Assembly: GCA_937129365.1 (NCBI GenBank) | Contig: CAKZNB010000049.1 | Span: forward strand, 133,498 to 197,497 | Direction: 5' to 3' | Length of the DNA: 64,000 nucleotides | Origin: an uncultured Flavobacteriales bacterium | GTDB taxonomy: Bacteria > Bacteroidota > Bacteroidia > Flavobacteriales_D > CAJJDF01 | In this document: in pieces, positions 17,975-45,220 of the stretch | Position numbering within the stretch: the first letter of the stretch is position 1 | Layout of the letters: every line of letters begins with the position of its first letter | The notes under the pieces: model-generated | What the model saw: only the letters and a program-made list of their open reading frames with translations | The model's database searches: none | Told to the model about the DNA's origin: nothing | Made by a program: the position numbers and the translations under genes

Positions 17975-18871
17975 TTATTTAGAAAGTTTACCTAGCACAT
18001 ACCCAATCATCTTATCCACAGTTTTTTTATAATCCTTGCTGTATTGTTTAAGATGTCTGTTGGCAATTATTGCACAGATAGTTGCAGTTTTATGTCCCAT
18101 CATGCCTCCTAGAGCATACAATGCTGAAGTTTCCATTTCAAAATTCATCATTTTCAATCCATTGAATTCAAAATTAGCTAATTGTTCGTTGAGGTTTTTT
18201 TGCTTGGTTTGTACCCTTAATACTCGTCCTTGAGGACCATAAAACCCATTTCCAGTAATGGTAATTCCAGAGCTAGCTTTTTCTTTCAGTAAGTCAATCA
18301 ATTCAACGTTTCCCTGAGAAATATAGGGCTTTACAGTGGCAACACTCCAATTTACTTGCGAGAAAAATGCTTTTTCAATATCCAGTTCTACCTCGCTTGA
18401 AAGATGCTTATAAAAACCAGCCAACCCATCAAATCCCAATCCAAAATCTGAAACCACATAGCTATCCACAGGTATGTTGGGTTGCAAAGCCCCAGAAGTT
18501 CCAATTCTAATAATTGTTAGAGATTTTTTCTCTTTTTTAATTTTACGAGTCTGCAAATCGATATTCACCAAAGCGTCTAATTCATTGATAACTATATCAA
18601 TATTATCTGCTCCAATTCCTGTAGATAATGCCGAAATTCGTTTTCCTTTGTAAGTCCCAGTATGGGTTACAAACTCCCTATTGGCTACTTTATGCTCAAT
18701 GTTGTCAAAGTATTTTGATATTTGCTCCACTCTACCTTGGTCACCAACAATCAACACAGTATCTGCAAGTTGATGTGGCAATAAATGAAGATGAAATATA
18801 CTTCCATCATCATTTATTACTAATTCAGATTCCTCAAGCGGAAGCTCTGACTCATTTAAGGTAGCATCCAT
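17975..18871 (-). CDS. Nucleoside phosphorylase (PNP/UDP family 1)
   Basis: 298 aa; IRIGTSGAL and FEMETSALY motifs. Confidence 0.8.
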   Translation of the reverse strand: MDATLNESELPLEESELVINDDGSIFHLHLLPHQLADTVLIVGDQGRVEQISKYFDNIEHKVANREFVTHTGTYKGKRISALSTGIGADNIDIVINELDALVNIDLQTRKIKKEKKSLTIIRIGTSGALQPNIPVDSYVVSDFGLGFDGLAGFYKHLSSEVELDIEKAFFSQVNWSVATVKPYISQGNVELIDLLKEKASSGITITGNGFYGPQGRVLRVQTKQKNLNEQLANFEFNGLKMMNFEMETSALYALGGMMGHKTATICAIIANRHLKQYSKDYKKTVDKMIGYVLGKLSK

Positions 18872-26900: not shown

Positions 26901-27317
26901 CTAATTTTGTTTTTTTCCAACAAACACAGTCAATCTTCCAGTAGAAACCAATTTTTCTTCCTCGTTAGTAATATTAACTTGCCACACATGGGTAGTTTTT
27001 CCTTTGTGGACTATTACAGCTTTTGCATACACAAACCCAGAACGGACAGCTCGTATGTGATTGATATTCAAATCCAATCCTGAAGAAAATGCAATTTCGT
27101 TATCTATTAATAAATGAGAACCAATACTTCCTAATGTCTCAATTAAAGCAGCTGAAGCACCGCCATGCATAATTCCCATAGGTTGGTGAGTTCTATTATC
27201 CACAGACATTTTACCACAGATATAATCTTCGCCTATTTCGGTGTATTCAATTCCTAAAGTCTCCATCATGGTATTTTTGGAAGAAGCATTCAATTGTGAT
27301 AAATCAGTGTTTTTCAT
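26901..27317 (-). CDS. Hotdog-fold acyl-CoA thioesterase (PaaI/YbdB family)
   Basis: 138 aa. HQPMGIMHGGASAAL motif. 4-nt overlap with rsmE. Confidence 0.85.
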   Translation of the reverse strand: MKNTDLSQLNASSKNTMMETLGIEYTEIGEDYICGKMSVDNRTHQPMGIMHGGASAALIETLGSIGSHLLIDNEIAFSSGLDLNINHIRAVRSGFVYAKAVIVHKGKTTHVWQVNITNEEEKLVSTGRLTVFVGKKQN

Positions 27318-28003
27318 AGTAAATTATAATGTGTGCAAGCAACAATAGCAGCAGTTTCGGTTCTCAATCTGGTTTCGCCCAAAGATAATTCATTAAATCC
27401 AGCTTGTTTTGCCAAGTCTATTTCTTTGGGAGTGAAATCTCCTTCGGGACCAATTAAAATAAGAGTAGATTTAGTTGAGGGTAGAGCATAAGAAAGTAAA
27501 TTTTTTTTCTCTCCATTTTCTTCGCAATGTGCAATGTATTTATTTGTAGAATTATCTTTTAGTAATTCTTTAAAAGTAATTATAGGATTCAACACAGGTA
27601 AATGAAAACTCTTGGATTGTTTCCCGGCAGAAACAATAATTTTCTCCATTCTTTCAGCTTTCAGTACTTTCCGCTCAGAGCGTTCGCAGAGGATAGGAGT
27701 AACTTGAGAAATGCCAATTTCGGTAGCTTTTTCTAGAAAAAACTCCATGCGGTTGTTGTTTTTGGTAGGAGCAATGGCAATGTGCAAATGGTTGTGTTGA
27801 AGAAAACTCTGTTTACTTTTTATAGCAACATGGCTTTTTTTTGAGCCAATTTGAGTGAGTTCACATTCAAATAAATCGCCAGTTCCATTCATTATCCATA
27901 TAGAATCACCTACTTGCTTTCTCAGTACTCTTGTGACATGAGTATGTTCTTCTTTTTCAAGAAAAAGTTCTGTTTCTATTTTGGGATTGTAGAATAATTG
28001 CAT
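27314..28003 (-). CDS. rsmE: 16S rRNA (uracil1498-N3)-methyltransferase RsmE
   Basis: 229 aa. MQLFY start, PUA-like N-domain, SPOUT C-domain with LIGPEGDF. Confidence 0.9.
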   Translation of the reverse strand: MQLFYNPKIETELFLEKEEHTHVTRVLRKQVGDSIWIMNGTGDLFECELTQIGSKKSHVAIKSKQSFLQHNHLHIAIAPTKNNNRMEFFLEKATEIGISQVTPILCERSERKVLKAERMEKIIVSAGKQSKSFHLPVLNPIITFKELLKDNSTNKYIAHCEENGEKKNLLSYALPSTKSTLILIGPEGDFTPKEIDLAKQAGFNELSLGETRLRTETAAIVACTHYNLL

Positions 28004-28004
28004 G

Positions 28005-28128
28005 GTAACGCAAAGATGGGGATTTTTTCATTAGTCGTTCACCTGTAGCCATTAAAACTCAGTCTTTTTTTTAAATTTATCTTGATATTATTGGTCCCAA
28101 AGTCTTTGAATAAGCGTCTGTTTTAGTG
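28005..28128. repeat. Degenerate attC-like palindrome (element Z) between the GNAT stop and the rsmE start
   Basis: On the + strand GTAACG-CAAAGA-TGGGGA (28005-28022) pairs imperfectly with TCCCA..TCTTTG..GTT (28095-28122). TTAGTG at 28123-28128 is complementary to CACTAA at 28664-28669. Much weaker than elements A and B. Confidence 0.3.
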
Positions 28129-28659
28129 ATGCTTATTTTTTATTATAAGTTTTTTGTCACACCAATACCAGACTACATCTTCACCTCCAGGTTCATAAGG
28201 CGCAAATTTATCAAATTCCATCCCAACTTTTTCCATAACTTTTATAGATGCTTTATTTTCCTTCATAGCAATTGCTATTATCTGTCTTAATTCGAGTTTA
28301 TCAAATCCATATGTTAAAATTGCTTGAGATGCTTCTGTTGCAAAACCCATCCCCCAATATTGAGGGGAGAATCTATAACCAAGATCAATTTCATCAAATT
28401 CAGGTAGATACGCTAAACCAGCCCAGCCAACAAAATGCATTCCATTTTTTAGAAAGGTAGCCCATCTTCCGTATCCATAATTCTCATAGTCGTTAATTCT
28501 TGTTTTTATTGCCTGTTCCATTTCTTCTAAAGATTCAACCAGAGGTTCTCCTGTGTACTTTTGTACATCAGAATTAGAATGCAACTTAAAAAGTTCCTCT
28601 TTATCATCTAAGGTGATTTTCCTTAATAATAATCTCTTTGTTTCTATCAAAATTTTCAT
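28123..28659 (-). CDS. GNAT-family N-acetyltransferase (RimJ/RimL-like, Acetyltransf_3-type)
   Basis: 178 aa. ETKRLLLRKITLDD start and QYWGMGFATEA acetyl-CoA region. Confidence 0.85.
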   Translation of the reverse strand: MKILIETKRLLLRKITLDDKEELFKLHSNSDVQKYTGEPLVESLEEMEQAIKTRINDYENYGYGRWATFLKNGMHFVGWAGLAYLPEFDEIDLGYRFSPQYWGMGFATEASQAILTYGFDKLELRQIIAIAMKENKASIKVMEKVGMEFDKFAPYEPGGEDVVWYWCDKKLIIKNKHH

Positions 28660-28665
28660 TTTTCA

Positions 28666-28857
28666 CTAACGGTTGGTATAAGAAACGTAGGGCAGGGTAA
28701 AAGTACTATCGTTTCGGTTTATTACTTAGCTAAATATAAATATTTTGCTTTTATCTTATCGATTTTAAATGCCAAATTTTATATTTGGCGGACTTTGTAA
28801 ATAAACACAGACCTTTAGGCAAGCCAAGAATGCCCTATGTTTTTTATACATTGTTAG
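28666..28857. repeat. attC-like structured palindrome, element A (192 bp)
   Basis: + strand CTAAC(28666-70)...GTTAG(28853-57). Long imperfect stem of 5 bp, a 5x3-nt internal loop, 6 bp, G-T, 4 bp, G-T, 7 bp. Conserved core hairpin GCCAAAT-N5-ATTTGGC followed by GGAC. Confidence 0.6.
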
Positions 28858-29934
28858 CTAAAGTACTTTTTTCGTTAATATTGTATATAATCTATGGTTG
28901 ATGTAATAATTTCCTGTTCCTAATTTCTGTTTTATTAGGATTCCATCTTTCGATAATCTATTCAAATAGTTTCCTGCTGTTATTCTTGATACTCCTAAAT
29001 CTCTTTCTATAAATTCAATTTTAGTGTATGGATGTTGAAATAAATTATTCAATAAATCTTGACTATAAAATTTATAATTATCTCTAATTAAGTGTTTGTA
29101 CTCAAGCATTAGAACTTGAATTTCTTTAATTAATATAATTGTTTGTTTAGCAGTTTGTTCAACTGCTTTGATGATATAAATTAACCAATTTTCCCAATTA
29201 TCTGTAATTCTAACTTCTTGTAATAATTCGTAGTATTTCACCTTATTTTGAATAATGTATCGACTCAGGTAAAGTATTGGTAAGTCTAGTAAATCTTTCA
29301 TTACAAGGTATAGTACATTAATTATTCTTCCTGTTCTTCCGTTTCCGTCATAAAATGGATGAATACTCTCAAATTGAAAGTGAATAATAGCCATTTTAAC
29401 AATTGGGTCAAAATCAGATAAATCATCATCATTGATGAATGTTTCAAGATTAGACATTAAGTTCTTAATAGTGTCATAGTCTTGAGGAGGAGTGTATACA
29501 ACTTCTCCCGTTGTTGCATTTTTTAAAGCAGTACCTGGAACTTTTCTAAATCCAGCATTGTTTTTTTCAAGCTCAGATTGAATTTGAATTATATCGTTGT
29601 TTGTTAATATATTTCTCTTGGAGATTAATGAGTAGCCAGTTTTTAATGCTGATATATAATTTTGAACCTCTTTAGCATCCAATGACTTCAATCCATCTAA
29701 GTTTAATTCAGCTTTGTAAAGATCATCGTGAGTTGTAATGATGTTTTCAATTTCAGAACTATCTTTAGCTTCCTGAAGTCCTAAAGTATTGATTAGTATA
29801 CTCTCGTTAGGAATACTTGAAACTAAACCTTTTAATTCGGCTAGTGCTCTGTGAGCTTCGTTAAGCTTTTTTAAAACACGTTTTGTTTCAATATCTTTTG
29901 TAAGAGGTAATTTTTCAAGCTTGAAATTATTCAT
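28858..29934 (-). CDS. Fic-family protein (AMPylase-type, N-terminal inhibitory helix, C-terminal winged helix)
   Basis: 358 aa. Catalytic HPFYDGNGRTGR, N-terminal SSEIEN matching the (S/T)xxxE(G/N) auto-inhibition motif, C-terminal GVSRITAGNYLNRLSKDGIL wHTH. Confidence 0.92.
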   Translation of the reverse strand: MNNFKLEKLPLTKDIETKRVLKKLNEAHRALAELKGLVSSIPNESILINTLGLQEAKDSSEIENIITTHDDLYKAELNLDGLKSLDAKEVQNYISALKTGYSLISKRNILTNNDIIQIQSELEKNNAGFRKVPGTALKNATTGEVVYTPPQDYDTIKNLMSNLETFINDDDLSDFDPIVKMAIIHFQFESIHPFYDGNGRTGRIINVLYLVMKDLLDLPILYLSRYIIQNKVKYYELLQEVRITDNWENWLIYIIKAVEQTAKQTIILIKEIQVLMLEYKHLIRDNYKFYSQDLLNNLFQHPYTKIEFIERDLGVSRITAGNYLNRLSKDGILIKQKLGTGNYYINHRLYTILTKKVL

Positions 29935-29936
29935 AA

Positions 29937-30056
29937 TGATAAGAAAATCTATTTTTCTTTACAAAGATAGTTCTTTTGATAAGAAATATTAATTTTCTTT
30001 ACATATAAAATATATGTGATAAGATTTTAAGTTAATCTTTACATTCAATTTTTCTA
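29937..30056. repeat. Three exactly phased 40-bp direct repeats (iteron/operator-like) abutting the Fic start codon
   Basis: Units are 29937-76, 29977-30016 and 30017-56. Each is TGAT-AAGAxx-N7-xxTCTT-TACA on the + strand. The inner 6-N7-6 inverted repeat is kept by paired changes in unit 3 (AAGATT/AATCTT versus AAGAAA/TTTCTT). Confidence 0.8.
29962..29969 (-). promoter_or_regulatory. Candidate -7 box TATCTTTG (TAnnTTTG) for the Fic gene, inside repeat unit 1
   Basis: Exact consensus match on the minus strand about 28 nt upstream of the Fic ATG. Confidence 0.35.
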
Positions 30057-30075
30057 GGGTGCTTCCGTATTTTAG

Positions 30076-30272
30076 CTAACGTCTCGGCTATGATTAGTAC
30101 GGGAATTAAAAGTAGTGAACTTTCGATTAAGCACTTAGCCAAAACTTTTTATTTTGTTTTAATTTTTTCATTTTAAAAGCCAAATCAAAAGATTTGGCGG
30201 ACATTATAAAAACACACTAAACTTTGGATTAAACACTAAAACCCGTATTAATTATAGCCATTGTTGTGTGTA
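30076..30272. repeat. attC-like structured palindrome, element B (~195 bp)
   Basis: + strand CTAAC(30076-80)...GTTGTGTGTA(30263-72). Same stem architecture as element A but with different stem sequences. Same core hairpin GCCAAATC-N4-GATTTGGC followed by GGAC. Confidence 0.6.
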
Positions 30273-30276
30273 GTAC

Positions 30277-31695
30277 TTAGTCTTTACCTTTAATTATTCT
30301 AACATCATCTTGATAGTTATATCTAATAGCACCTTTTTCCAGTTTCATACCTTGGTTTCCAGTTATATCATCTGTAATTGGCCCAACATTATGCAACATA
30401 AAATCGAGATGATTGTATCTTTCGTTTGCAACAAGATTTGAGAAATTTATTTCATCAGAATAAAATCTTTGATTAGAACTTGTCTTTATCTCAATAACAC
30501 CAAAGGTATCTAAACTTGTGTTTTTGAATTCATAATCGTGTTCCCAAAAATAAGTTCCACCTTTTTCCATATGAAGTTTTCCACCTGATTTGCCATCCTT
30601 TCTTTTTGGAAAGCAGATAAATTTTGTTCCTACTTTCTGAGTTTGATTTGGTTTAATACACAAAGGGAATTCTGTATCTGCGTAAAGACTTTCTATCGGA
30701 AAGAAAAATACTAATTGCTTTGAAGTTAGTACTTCTATACTTTCTATATAAACATTCTGCTTACCATCATTAATAATGCTGATTTCGATTATAGGTTCAG
30801 TTATTTTTTGTTTTTTTCTATTCAGTAGTAAATCAATTTTCTTAGGTTCTTTAAACCAATGAAATTTATTTTTGTGTTCAAAGATTTGATGTCTTAAAAT
30901 AATTTTGTCTTTATTATTTATGGGTATCTTTTCTGAGTTTTCCTCTACATTAATAAAAATCTCCTGTGTTACAGTTAAACCGTTATGGTCTTTGAACTCC
31001 TTAAGATAATTAGAAAAAGGTGGTAATTCTGGACTTAATGTATTCAACATAGCAGACAACAACATCGCAATCTCGAAATTATTTTCTTGTGAAATAGATT
31101 CATAATAAAATGAAGATTTTGCTAATTGTCTTGATTCTTGAAAGGCATAATTACGTTTTGTATGACTCCAGTATCCTTTTCCAATGACAAGTAAGACATC
31201 AATAGCTGGATGAGTATGAAATTCCGAATCATATTTTTTTATACGTTCTATTTCATTCTCTTTTGTCATATCGGATGCATAGGCAAAAAGAACTCTAATC
31301 GGTCTTTTTTGACCTTTGGAATCAAACTTTTTAAGAAGGTTAAATTTCTTAATAGTACTTTTTATTTCCGTTGCGTTTATTGTTGATTTTACTTCAAAAG
31401 CGTAGCGACAACTTTCAATGGGAAAAACTCCAACATTTGAGCTTAACATAGCTTTAGGAAGTGAATCCTCGTTATATATAATTAAATCTGTTTCTGCTGA
31501 TAAACTTCCATTGCCATCGGCAATTTTTCCATTTCCTATATTCCATTTGCGAGGAAGGTATTTTAAGAAAAAGTCACTTAGATGTTCTTCTTTAACTTTT
31601 CCTTTAAGCCCATCGTGTTCTATTGAAGAACCTAAATTAGCAGATTCTACTAAAGTATTTATGTTGTTCAATAAGACTTTTAATACAGGTGTCAT
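30277..31695 (-). CDS. Hypothetical protein with N-terminal PD-(D/E)xK nuclease-like domain (DUF6602-like) and unknown C-terminal domain
   Basis: 472 aa. D70 (ETDLIIY) ... E101-V-K103 (AFEVKS) spacing typical of the restriction-endonuclease fold. The C-terminal ~240 aa have no motif I recognise. Confidence 0.6.
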   Translation of the reverse strand: MTPVLKVLLNNINTLVESANLGSSIEHDGLKGKVKEEHLSDFFLKYLPRKWNIGNGKIADGNGSLSAETDLIIYNEDSLPKAMLSSNVGVFPIESCRYAFEVKSTINATEIKSTIKKFNLLKKFDSKGQKRPIRVLFAYASDMTKENEIERIKKYDSEFHTHPAIDVLLVIGKGYWSHTKRNYAFQESRQLAKSSFYYESISQENNFEIAMLLSAMLNTLSPELPPFSNYLKEFKDHNGLTVTQEIFINVEENSEKIPINNKDKIILRHQIFEHKNKFHWFKEPKKIDLLLNRKKQKITEPIIEISIINDGKQNVYIESIEVLTSKQLVFFFPIESLYADTEFPLCIKPNQTQKVGTKFICFPKRKDGKSGGKLHMEKGGTYFWEHDYEFKNTSLDTFGVIEIKTSSNQRFYSDEINFSNLVANERYNHLDFMLHNVGPITDDITGNQGMKLEKGAIRYNYQDDVRIIKGKD

Positions 31696-31887
31696 TATTT
31701 TTGATGTTCGTTTGGTGTATTACACACAACTTGTTTGTATGCGGAAGTTAAGAAAAATACTTTGTAATTAGCTAGTACACATGGTGTAATATATGTTTTT
31801 ATTTATTTTTTAGTACATTTGATAGGTGCTGATTAGCGCACTCAATCGGATGTAAACGTCACCTTTATGAAAATAGAAAATTATTTA

Positions 31888-32412
31888 TCAATCTTTTTTC
31901 TTCCTTTTCCTCCATTTAAAATTTCGGTTGTTTATCAGAACTAATCTAAGTGAAACAAAAAGAGTGTTGGTGTTTTTAAAGGTATCAAAAGGGGTTAGAA
32001 TATTATACCCAATCTGTAGGTGAGCCAAAGAAATTTTGTACCCAATGGTAGGGGAAAGCCCAATTCGATTTTGGTCAAAGTTGGATTTAAACACCAAGTT
32101 TCCTCCGTAGGTTAAATCTAACCTGCCTTTCTTTTGCCAATACCCAGCCGAAAATCCCAAAATGTTTTCTGTAAGGTTGTAATCAAAACCTACATTAAAA
32201 GCATGAGTTGTAGGTTTTATCAATTTCACTGCCTTTCTCTGAAACTCATAACCTAATTCTAAGTTATTGTATTTTCCTCTTTGTAACCCAATGTAAGGAC
32301 CACTTTTGGTGATTTTTACCAAGGGGTCTTTTTTGTATAAACTAGCTTCTAACCCTTGAGAAAAAGAATTAGTGCCGAGTATAGCTAAACAGATAAAAAA
32401 GAAAATTCTCAT
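31888..32412 (-). CDS. Hypothetical outer-membrane beta-barrel-like protein
   Basis: 174 aa, signal peptide, alternating beta-strand pattern, basic C-terminal tail. Confidence 0.5.
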   Translation of the reverse strand: MRIFFFICLAILGTNSFSQGLEASLYKKDPLVKITKSGPYIGLQRGKYNNLELGYEFQRKAVKLIKPTTHAFNVGFDYNLTENILGFSAGYWQKKGRLDLTYGGNLVFKSNFDQNRIGLSPTIGYKISLAHLQIGYNILTPFDTFKNTNTLFVSLRLVLINNRNFKWRKRKKKD

Positions 32413-44233: not shown

Positions 44234-45220
44234 TTATTTGACTATTGGGTATTGATAGTACTCGTCTAGTGAACTTGTCCATAATCTTTTGGAATAGCCA
44301 ACTTGTTTTCGGGAATAAAAAGTATAGTTTTTTCTATTGTCTCTAAACTTTATTTTATTCATTTTACGAGCTATTTTTCCTGTATGGATTTCTCCAGCAG
44401 GCGAATTTAATACAAATAATGAGTCTTTTTTTATCTCAAAACCAACATAATACCTATCTCTGGAATTTTGAATTAATATTGCTTTTCTGCACAATTGACT
44501 CTCAAAGTTGAGATACAAATTATAACGATTTCCATCAATTTTTGACCCTAATTTATAATGCCCAAAGGGTCTAGAAGTTTTATAGTTTCTTTCTAATTGT
44601 GCTACTAAGCTCGTAAATAGGCAATATTTGTAGTTTTTTGAACTTGCGCAGAAAAATTGATTTTGCCTTAAATTAACTAAGGTAATAGTATCATATTCAG
44701 AAACATACTCATAAGTTTTATAAAAATAACTAAAAGTACCTGTGTCACTGTTGATTATAACAGATTCATCAAGTGTTATTTGTCCAGTTTCTCGGTTTCT
44801 AATCTGAAAATGGGTATTAGTAATTGTATCAATTCTGTAACTGTTGGTTACATCAAGAAAAGCATATTTTACCTGATACACTGATAGTTTATTGTTTTTT
44901 ATTTTTCTGTTTATTTTCTTCCAAAAATCTTCAGGTCTTTTTTTAGCAAGCCGTTTGTTTCTTTTGTTTATTCCCGAAGAAAATATGTACAAAGAATCAT
45001 TATTAAAAAATACATTGTTGTACCAATATCCATTTTTTCTCTCGCTAAATTGAGGCAGAATACTGTCTACAAATCTGGTTTCAACAAAGCTAGAATCCCA
45101 GGTTTTGGTGGTGTAAAAACTAGTATCATATTGTACCTTTCGCACTCGCAGTATATTCCCTTCCTGTGCACTTGCACAGAAGGAAATAAGGAACAATATG
45201 ATACATAGTTTTGTTTTCAA
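44234..45220 (-). CDS. Hypothetical secreted protein (ECF-sigma operon)
   Basis: 328 aa. Signal peptide followed by GNILRVRKVQYD, similar to the start of the downstream protein. Confidence 0.6.
   Translation of the reverse strand: MKTKLCIILFLISFCASAQEGNILRVRKVQYDTSFYTTKTWDSSFVETRFVDSILPQFSERKNGYWYNNVFFNNDSLYIFSSGINKRNKRLAKKRPEDFWKKINRKIKNNKLSVYQVKYAFLDVTNSYRIDTITNTHFQIRNRETGQITLDESVIINSDTGTFSYFYKTYEYVSEYDTITLVNLRQNQFFCASSKNYKYCLFTSLVAQLERNYKTSRPFGHYKLGSKIDGNRYNLYLNFESQLCRKAILIQNSRDRYYVGFEIKKDSLFVLNSPAGEIHTGKIARKMNKIKFRDNRKNYTFYSRKQVGYSKRLWTSSLDEYYQYPIVK

Follow-up and report, generated by a model that had tools for sequence, protein, structure and literature searches.

We analysed a stretch of 64,000 nucleotides from an uncultured Flavobacteriales bacterium (contig CAKZNB010000049.1, positions 133,498 to 197,497), which we call the window and in whose coordinates positions are given unless a locus number (L) precedes them. 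On its minus strand, between a core gene for an outer membrane protein (OMP)-like product (omp) and the core gene rsmE, lies a 3.9-kb block with three accessory genes that are transcribed in the direction common to omp and rsmE (Table 1). The block was shown to consist of two complete gene cassettes, one with a NucC-like nuclease protein and one with a SoFic protein, followed by a GNAT gene that lacks a 3' site, all inserted between omp and rsmE. The first gene, open reading frame (ORF) 472, has an N-terminus that matches DUF6602 and the PADLOC PD-DExK and NucC nuclease models, followed by an uncharacterised C-terminal region. SoFic proteins are a known family of single-gene anti-phage systems, and two of the accessory genes in the window are predicted phage-defence genes. 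A preliminary description, made from the sequence alone, had already recognised the same three minus-strand genes between the two core genes and had interpreted them as an integron-style array of three cassettes.

ORF472 and SoFic are each followed by an imperfect palindrome that starts with AAC and ends with GTT; these palindromes, which we refer to as E1 and E2, begin 12 and 3 nt past the respective stop codons. The two are homologous, with about 60% identity and conserved blocks, and they have in common an inner hairpin, GTCCGCCAAAT-N5/6-ATTTGGC, which reads GCCAAAT-N6-ATTTGGC at 30179-30198 in E1 and GCCAAAT-N5-ATTTGGC at 28771-28789 in E2. This core occurs twice in the 64 kb, against 0 occurrences expected by chance. 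Both sites are predicted to fold into an outer stem of 18-25 bp plus the inner hairpin, and the plus strand, which is the bottom strand of the array, folds better; in E1 the outer stem has 18 bp and includes two G·T wobbles on that strand. As the preliminary description had remarked, such sites, at 188 nt each in our analysis, are longer than and unlike classical attC sites. They also have no extrahelical bases.

The ends of the two cassettes are complementary to each other across the gene that they enclose. The seven variable bases that follow each GTT (the R' box) in the window pair with the bases before the AAC (the R'' box) of the next downstream site. At the first junction, GTTGTGTGTA (31730-31721) and the reverse complement of TACACACAAC (30272-30263) are identical, confirming the 10/10 match reported earlier. 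At the second, GTTAGCTAAA (30080-30071) is complementary to TTTAGCTAAC (28862-28853) over its full length, again at 10/10 positions and thus better than the 7/7 previously claimed. With the base composition of the window, a match of the seven variable nucleotides is expected by chance with p ~1.4e-4 per junction. The third junction that had been put forward, a 6/6 match behind GNAT, did not hold up: TTAGTGA and TCACTAA do match at 7/7, but the match overlaps the stop codon and lies 2 nt out of register with the AAC that follows. A palindrome had also been claimed behind all three genes, but none with an attC-like fold was found after GNAT, since the segment 28004-28135 has a minimum free energy of only -5.8/-8.6 kcal/mol, no match to the site family and no long stem; TCACTAA (28122-28128) is the sole possible R'' remnant there. 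The GNAT gene may be a cassette whose site has been deleted. The cassettes proposed at 30080-31729 and 28670-30079 are therefore confirmed, whereas that at 28009-28669 is not, as its gene has no 3' site and its 5' site differs in a conspecific strain. In sum, the original observation is partly confirmed, for two of three cassettes, and the integron-style interpretation is supported.

No recombinase gene was found in the 64-kb window, that is, for at least 27 kb to each side of the array, by tblastn with IntI1, in agreement with the earlier remark that no integrase was in view. A relaxed nhmmer search and a structure-based scan likewise revealed no further sites in the window. Rfam 15 gave no match at gathering score in the whole window, and the region itself produced two chance-level matches at E<=1. 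The 157-bp spacer on the omp side of the array is not similar to the attC family or to attI hairpins, and it is identical in conspecific strains with other cassettes. Folding of the region between omp and ORF472 likewise gave no structure of the attC kind. The leaders of ORF472, SoFic and GNAT measure 35, 146 and 10 nt, respectively. Two direct repeats sit directly upstream of the SoFic start codon; they are likely to be the cassette's own operator or promoter and could possibly act as an operator for autoregulation via the helix-turn-helix-like C-terminal domain of SoFic. Elsewhere in the window, a 93-nt near-perfect palindrome with AAC...GTT ends and a 15/16-bp stem (45118-45210) is found at the 5' end of a minus-strand ORF (44234-45220); we considered it as a further site and rejected it, its sequence being unrelated to the attC-like family.

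Table 1. Features of the omp-rsmE locus, in the direction of transcription (G|TT marks the crossover point)
Feature	Position	Strand	Remarks
OMP-like ORF, 174 aa, core flank	31888-32412	-	in relatives directly adjoins rsmE
Spacer, omp stop codon to first crossover point, 157 bp	31731-31887	-	
Array 5' junction, G|TTGTGTGTA	31721-31730	-	part of cassette 1 from the base after G onwards; pairs at 10/10 with the R'' box of E1
Cassette 1, 1650 bp, ORF472 + site E1	30080-31729	-	
ORF472	30277-31695	-	DUF6602 / PD-(D/E)xK, NucC-like nuclease N-terminal domain; start codon 35 nt past G|TT
E1, attC-like site, 188 nt	30078-30265	-	AAC (30265-30263)...GTT (30080-30078)
Cassette 2, 1410 bp, SoFic + site E2	28670-30079	-	5' end TTAGCTAAA, counted with the G, 10/10 complementary to TTTAGCTAAC (28862-28853)
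SoFic cassette leader, two 40-nt direct repeats	29936-30016	-	inverted repeat TGTAAAGAAA...TTTCTTATCA in each
SoFic-type Fic protein (Fic_N, Fic, SoFic-like_C)	28858-29934	-	PADLOC SoFic, E=5.6e-119
E2, attC-like site, 188 nt	28668-28855	-	AAC (28855-28853)...GTT (28670-28668)
GNAT (Acetyltransf_3)	28123-28659	-	start codon 10 nt past G|TT of E2; in the inserted block, without 3' site
GNAT-rsmE spacer	28004-28122	-	no attC-like fold; final ~35 nt are the conserved rsmE leader, present in relatives too
rsmE, 16S rRNA methyltransferase, core flank	27314-28003	-	

Insertion and turnover between omp and rsmE

We compared the locus with that of related genomes and sister strains. In relatives whose omp is 84% and 69% identical to that of the window, omp adjoins rsmE with gaps of 123 bp and 1 bp, and ORF472, SoFic and GNAT are missing; the junction in these genomes is an empty site. 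Metagenome contigs that encode identical omp or rsmE proteins, with flanks that are ~99% identical, served for the comparison of strains. Some of these conspecific contigs are arranged as in the window. Another has the order omp-ORF472-[GAPS4a+GAPS4b]-further cassettes, and the ends of its two-gene cassette, GTTGGCTGTA and TACAGCCAAC, match at 10/10 positions; in a further one, SoFic is followed by a different site of 126 nt and an ORF of more than 849 aa; and yet another carries an SDR cassette ahead of GNAT. Because the relatives have an empty site and conspecific contigs hold other cassettes, the window block is an insertion whose content turns over within the species. A fixed synteny of the three genes in relatives, which the preliminary description had named as an outcome that would speak for an ordinary repeat family, is thereby refuted. 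A third relative, with a 75% identical omp, has a tiny ORF and an attC-like palindrome of ~100 nt in the omp-rsmE gap (L132-L134:8529-8892), of which R'' ends in AAT and R' reads GTTACTC; the presence of this palindrome suggests that the gap is an insertion hot spot that has been hit independently. No homologues of GNAT or ORF472 were found in other arrays.

A family of sites and cassettes with a one-cassette offset

One genome per species was scanned with the core motif, which yielded at least 120 loci, nearly all of them in Flavobacteriaceae; the counts for the family cover the matches listed. The genera among these matches include Maribacter, Winogradskyella, Aquimarina, Tenacibaculum, Polaribacter, Cellulophaga, Zobellia, Dokdonia and Psychroserpens, and a few of the listed loci belong to Saprospiraceae, Cyclobacteriaceae, Crocinitomicaceae and Cytophagales. 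Motif matches outside Bacteroidota (L003, L050, L052, L076 and L099) had no flanking similarity and were discarded as chance. With an nhmmer profile built from the sites, we obtained 277 matches among the loci listed; the sites of a locus all lie on one strand, 0.5-4 kb apart and up to 8 in 8 kb, and lone copies exist at some loci. Many contigs that bear sites or a recombinase are only 0.7-5 kb long (L002, L006, L015, L026, L028, L035, L083, L095, L117 and others). Short-read assemblies appear to break inside arrays, so that the true size of the arrays is underestimated.

The ends of the sites are invariant (AAC in 210/224, GTT in 219/227), while the adjacent 7 nt are free to vary; the consensus of R' is GTTR(G/T)N, and both window sites conform to the AAC/GTT inverse core. 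Measured from AAC to GTT, the sites have a median length of 188 nt (range 121-267 nt). A second class of ~125 nt has another conserved inner hairpin, GAAAATTCC-N3/4-GGAATTTTC, and is mixed with the 188-nt class within arrays (examples at L137, L138, L128:5224-5349 and L126:13558-13683). On the sense strand, the inner hairpins of both classes are followed by T-rich runs, which give them a terminator-like look.

To describe the fold of the family, we aligned 70 diverse bottom strands. The consensus has a continuous 16-bp stem in which compensatory double changes occur in 11 of 16 pairs (one pair, for example, is CG in 26 sequences, AU in 25 and GC in 12), and an asymmetric unpaired spacer sets the AAC/GTT box apart from the stem. 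On the bottom strand the stem also has two conserved G·T wobbles, present in 63/70 and 68/70 sequences, whose equivalents on the top strand would be A·C mismatches. The bottom strand is the more stable one in 156 of 191 sites (p=3e-23). We observed no conserved bulged (extrahelical) base in the 16-18-bp consensus stem of the 70 sequences, nor in E1 when this was read directly. The covariation of the stem, the bottom-strand wobbles and the bias in stability argue that a folded single strand would be the active form of the site, as in integrons, with the choice of strand probably encoded in a different manner.

We then asked whether the offset seen at the two window junctions is a property of the whole family, by scoring the 7 bases that follow each GTT for complementarity to the 7 bases that precede the AAC one site further downstream. 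The mean agreement was 5.08/7, and at least 6/7 positions matched in 72 of 114 junctions, 46 of which were perfect. The R' and R'' flanks of one and the same site agreed at a mean of only 2.54/7 (at least 6/7 in 8/191), close to the 2.36/7 of random pairs from different loci, of which 2.2% reached 6/7 and 0.3% were perfect. The offset is a property of the whole family, as is expected from strand exchange at or next to G|TT.

Duplicated and shared units define the cassette further, at a resolution of the invariant GTT +/- 1 nt. Cellulophaga algicola DSM 14237 contains a cassette with a 156-aa ORF and a 188-nt site twice within one array (L137:14953-15653 and 17976-18676), at 100% identity over 707 bp, and the identical segment opens at the ..CCG|TT of the upstream site and closes at ..ACG|TT in the site that belongs to the cassette. 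Units that extend from R' to R' are also common to different species, namely L058 (Nonlabens)/L071 and L055 (Maribacter)/L084 (Zobellia). A model in which each cassette carries its site at the 5' end, raised by breakpoints at R'', was rejected on the evidence of the C. algicola duplicate and of these R'-to-R' units. Among the 72 cassettes whose ends match, 60/66 have their longest ORF in the orientation of the site, and the medians are 32 nt from G|TT to the start codon and 15.5 nt from the stop codon to AAC. Their cargo is varied, with 70 Pfam families among 68 proteins, and includes GmrSD, SLATT, Schlafen/AlbA_2, NACHT, SoFic, a beta-lactamase and endonuclease V.

A linked tyrosine recombinase and its attI-like site

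Beside arrays in at least 9 loci, tblastn with IntI1 detected full-length tyrosine recombinases of ~375 aa that are 30-34% identical to the query, and physical linkage of a tyrosine recombinase and an attI-like G|TT site to arrays extends to at least 10 genomes. A tyrosine recombinase for such arrays, the absence of which anywhere in the genome would have counted against the integron-style interpretation in the preliminary description, was thus found in other genomes. There were no other IntI1-like matches in any of ~140 loci. All seven of the full-length recombinase genes that we inspected lie upstream of the cassettes and are co-oriented with them; in all seven cases, a short hairpin and a G|TT follow the stop codon of the recombinase by 40-110 bp, and the flank of this G|TT is complementary at 9-10/10 positions to the R'' of the first cassette. 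The conserved form of the attI-like element is a hairpin GGATA...TATCC followed by AATTG|TT, 40-60 nt past the stop codon (L137:11125-11170, L138, L139 and L005).

A reciprocal test used three complete genomes that were picked solely via the recombinase: C. algicola (CP002453), Formosa sp. Hel1_31_208 (LT629733) and Maribacter sp. MJ134 (CP034570). All three share the platform of recombinase and attI-like site, with 5-11 sites within 10 kb and near-perfect offset pairing. In Maribacter sp. MJ134, a CTnDOT-type integrase (Arm-DNA-bind_5), a relaxase and a NikA-like gene are neighbours of the platform (L139:4367-8538), which may lie beside or inside an integrative mobilisable element.

Immediately upstream of the recombinase, in seven loci, we found a conserved, divergently transcribed ORF of ~125 aa (L137:9535-9915, L138:9529-9909 and L139:9531-9908, and also L082, L046, L111 and L041). 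Its product is a zinc-ribbon protein with a CxxC...CxxxC motif and a C-terminal FFTHYWKN..YLFVYEYGF block, and it matches no Pfam or NCBIfam family. The ORF is absent beside the more divergent recombinases of L075 and L069.

The array-linked recombinase has a complete set of catalytic residues. Its top NCBIfam match is the XerA model NF040815, over the cut-off of that model, whereas the integron-integrase model TIGR02249 scored 196-230 bits, below its cut-off of 265, in two pieces with profile positions 179-238 missing. The nearest solved structures are those of archaeal XerA (4a8e and 5hxy). When the recombinase is set against VchIntIA (2a3v), 26 residues stand opposite 69 of the integrase, ~43 fewer, in the place where the additional domain sits; the additional domain of IntI is absent from the array-linked recombinase. 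Residues 1-68 form an extra N-terminal domain with a predicted beta-beta-alpha-beta-beta-alpha fold (block-wise predicted local distance difference test score, pLDDT, ~58-88), which has no Pfam match; a Foldseek search with the whole model was dominated by the catalytic core. The NCBI name of these proteins is 'site-specific tyrosine recombinase/integron integrase'. The recombination of the IntI type that had been proposed for the window is therefore upheld as to the G|TT offset, found in the 72 of 114 junctions, but not as to the enzyme, since the linked recombinase is not a canonical IntI.

Proposed integron-like gene capture and its relation to known systems

We propose that the 3.9-kb block is very probably an orphan array of mobile gene cassettes and part of an integron-like system with a wide distribution in Flavobacteriaceae and in some other Bacteroidota. 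The unit of this system is one compact, usually promoterless ORF with a downstream recombination site of ~125 or ~188 nt, composed of the AAC...GTT inverse core, a short asymmetric unpaired spacer, a stem of 16-18 bp and a terminal region with a conserved small hairpin. The bottom strand (the plus strand of the window) would fold as single-stranded DNA, and a tyrosine recombinase would exchange strands at or next to the invariant G|TT; cassettes would leave as circles and re-enter at the G|TT of another site. A crossover at this position would account for the observed offset, in which the 7 nt after GTT are complementary to the 7 nt ahead of the next site's AAC and not to those of their own site. 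In complete elements the recombinase gene would lie upstream and co-oriented, with the hairpin and AATTG|TT after its stop codon as the primary insertion site, and in the main clade the conserved zinc-ribbon gene would be transcribed divergently beside it. At the window locus the enzyme, provided that the genome still encodes it, would work in trans from another position, and the array would serve as a small store of accessory, largely anti-phage genes.

Several observations weigh against this proposal. The folding of a single strand, the exact position of cleavage and catalysis by the linked recombinase are all deduced from sequence, activity at the window locus is deduced solely from population variation, and the 64-kb window has no recombinase. 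The GNAT gene lacks a 3' site although it was inserted with the block, and 42 of the 114 junctions are unmatched; these unmatched junctions are mostly long intervals, in which a site of the short class was probably missed by the profile. In addition, the points at which strains switch from one sequence to another fall in the centre of E1 (L128), ~10 nt past the AAC of E2 (L126) and 3 nt ahead of the start codon of GNAT (L123), and two cross-species homologies end at R''. In the first of these cases, the site after ORF472 is a hybrid (L128:2928-3116 vs. window 30078-30265), with a left half that is identical to the window and a right half from another copy; in the second, the same SoFic gene is followed by a wholly different site, the switch lying just past R'' (L126:13558 vs. 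window 28855). Pure exchange at G|TT does not explain these switch points, and crossover rules that are not fully classical are one option. The simplest explanation is that homologous recombination between conserved parts of the sites also shapes the arrays; rare top-strand events are an alternative for the odd breakpoints.

It could be argued that the block is instead an ordinary integron cassette cluster (a CALIN, where attC sites are clustered without an integrase), with long attC sites that are served by a canonical IntI with its additional domain, encoded elsewhere, and that the Xer-like gene next to the array is there by coincidence. Four features do follow the classical pattern, namely the AAC/GTT inverse core, the complementarity with its offset, the bias towards the bottom strand and the way in which cassettes are built; in addition, the NCBI name of the linked protein invokes an integron integrase, and the IntegronFinder papers, in the passages concerned, record lone integrases (In0) in Bacteroidetes. 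We nevertheless consider this very unlikely, given that 10 of 10 arrays with a full-length recombinase start right after the stop codon of the Xer-like gene, at a G|TT that bears the flank of the first cassette. The linked protein is also ~43 residues short at the additional domain of VchIntIA and gives only the sub-cut-off, two-piece match to TIGR02249, no second IntI1-like match turned up in the ~140 loci, and the sites are without extrahelical bases, the feature recognised by the additional domain of IntI (Messier & Roy 2001, cited in PMC9668308).

Alternatively, the units might be double-stranded modules of the Xer/dif kind, in which the crossover takes place at the inner palindrome GCCAAAT-N5/6-ATTTGGC, with its two inverted 7-bp arms, and the outer palindrome is accessory. 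The inner palindrome does resemble the core site of a tyrosine recombinase and is the best-conserved part of the 188-nt class, and the recombinase is nearest to Xer enzymes. The hybrid site of L128, which changes identity exactly at its centre, prompted us to consider such a central crossover, but the model was rejected on four grounds. The ~125-nt class has no inner palindrome of this kind, yet it shares arrays with the 188-nt class and has matched ends of the same kind; under a central crossover the left stem of site n+1 should pair with the right stem of site n, whereas the stems pair within a site and only the outer 7 nt are offset; both ends of the duplicated C. algicola cassette lie at an outer GTT; and the strand-specific G·T wobbles favour a folded single strand. 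We regard this model as highly improbable. Intergenic repeats of a repetitive extragenic palindromic (REP), miniature inverted-repeat transposable element (MITE) or terminator-like kind, with no role in mobility and with boundary matches as by-products of repeat insertion, would be in keeping with multicopy intergenic palindromes, with the lone copies at some loci and with the resemblance of the inner hairpin and T-runs to an intrinsic terminator on the sense strand, but this is hardly credible and is already contradicted by the strict co-orientation of arrays with one ORF per interval, by an offset complementarity that spans the ORF (72/114 junctions against 2% in random pairs, which refutes the random scatter of the element envisaged in the preliminary description), by whole ORF-plus-site units that are duplicated and common to different species, by the recombinase and attI-like site linked to arrays, and by cargo that differs from strain to strain between identical core flanks.

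The arrays thus constitute a system that is integron-like in its working, rather than a demonstrated member of the integron family. We lean, without much confidence, towards the broader view that they represent an undescribed second lineage of integron-like gene capture in Flavobacteriaceae and some Saprospiraceae, Cyclobacteriaceae, Crocinitomicaceae and Cytophagales, the components of which would be an XerA-like tyrosine recombinase that has a novel N-terminal domain and no additional domain of the IntI type, a zinc-ribbon partner gene in divergent orientation, a hairpin attI right behind the stop codon of the recombinase, and long attC-like sites in which G·T wobbles, and not extrahelical bases, encode the choice of strand. 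If so, standard integron detection would miss the arrays, with the result that Bacteroidota have been regarded as nearly integron-free, and the window would hold an orphan array seeded at a chromosomal hot spot with anti-phage cargo.

Integrons are the textbook device of gene capture in bacteria, and the additional domain of IntI and the extrahelical bases of attC are their defining parts. To our knowledge, surveys have found integrons to be essentially absent from Bacteroidota. The arrays described here act like integron arrays, as judged by the G|TT offset, cassette duplication, sharing across species and turnover between strains, with neither of these two parts. If this is confirmed, cassette recombination that acts on single strands and depends on their structure either arose repeatedly or can work with a much simpler enzyme, and a new compact pair of recombinase and site would become available for study and engineering. 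Confirmation would also reveal a large uncatalogued pool of accessory genes in abundant marine heterotrophs, including phage defence by SoFic, GAPS4, GmrSD, SLATT and NucC-like nucleases. In practical terms, such regions would be missed by programs for integron detection and appear to be fragmented in the genome assemblies of these taxa, in both cases systematically.

With regard to previous work, the passage on Bacteroidetes in the IntegronFinder 2.0 paper reports In0 elements as the earlier finding, plus one complete integron, in Salinibacter ruber, and that passage makes no mention of Flavobacteriaceae arrays (PMC9024848). A passage of a 2024 preprint counts Bacteroidota among the clades earlier found without integrons. 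We found no published description of these arrays in full-text searches of the openly accessible literature, which accords with the earlier remark that such arrays are not known to have been described for Flavobacteriia.

The Xer family (archaeal XerA and bacterial XerC/D) provides, with XerA, the nearest matches to the linked recombinase in sequence and structure, and the recombinase shares its simple two-domain core without the IntI insertion. Xer sites, however, are a single double-stranded dif of 28 bp, or pdif sites in alternating orientation, whereas the sites described here are long folded palindromes, co-oriented, with a single one in each cassette, and the enzyme is extended by an N-terminal domain. 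Features of membership in REP/MITE families (copies strewn over intergenic positions and orientations without a link to the adjacent ORF) and in Xer/dif (pdif) modules (double-stranded sites of ~28 bp with XerC and XerD arms, in alternating orientation) were tested for and are not present. The window resembles a CALIN in that it has at least 2 sites, no recombinase in 64 kb and cassette cargo between core genes, a likeness that is conditional on accepting the sites as attC; CALINs are defined by the attC covariance model, and the sites here are unlike that model's family in structure.

In reverse integrons the integrase is oriented like the cassettes. Those of Treponema and related groups resemble the present system in that the integrase lies upstream of the array in this orientation (reverse integrons are mentioned in a passage of bioRxiv 10.1101/2020.05.09.085589, and Treponema chromosomal integrons in one of PMC3607928), but they have a bona fide IntI with the additional domain and classical attC sites. 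The likeness to sedentary chromosomal integrons, such as the Vibrio cholerae superintegron with its VCR attC repeats, goes further. It includes long co-oriented arrays of mostly promoterless, single-ORF cassettes, sites that are alike within a lineage, the AAC...GTT inverse core, a G|TT crossover that leads to the one-cassette offset, and a predicted bias towards folding of the bottom strand; the cargo is in both cases very diverse and mostly of unknown function, with some anti-phage genes, and assemblies break inside the arrays. Here, by contrast, the recombinase lacks the IntI additional domain, has an extra N-terminal domain of ~70 aa, is co-oriented with the cassettes and abuts the insertion site with its stop codon. 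The sites measure 125 or 188 nt instead of 57-141 nt, their continuous 16-18-bp stem has conserved G·T wobbles in place of extrahelical bases as well as an inner hairpin that is conserved, pairing in the R box spans 10 nt and not 7, a zinc-ribbon gene accompanies the recombinase, and the hosts are Bacteroidota. The inverse core, the one-cassette offset and the cassette anatomy are thus those of integrons, while tests for the additional domain, for extrahelical bases and for an attC length of ~57-141 nt were negative, and the evidence supports an integron-like system with a non-IntI recombinase and non-classical sites.

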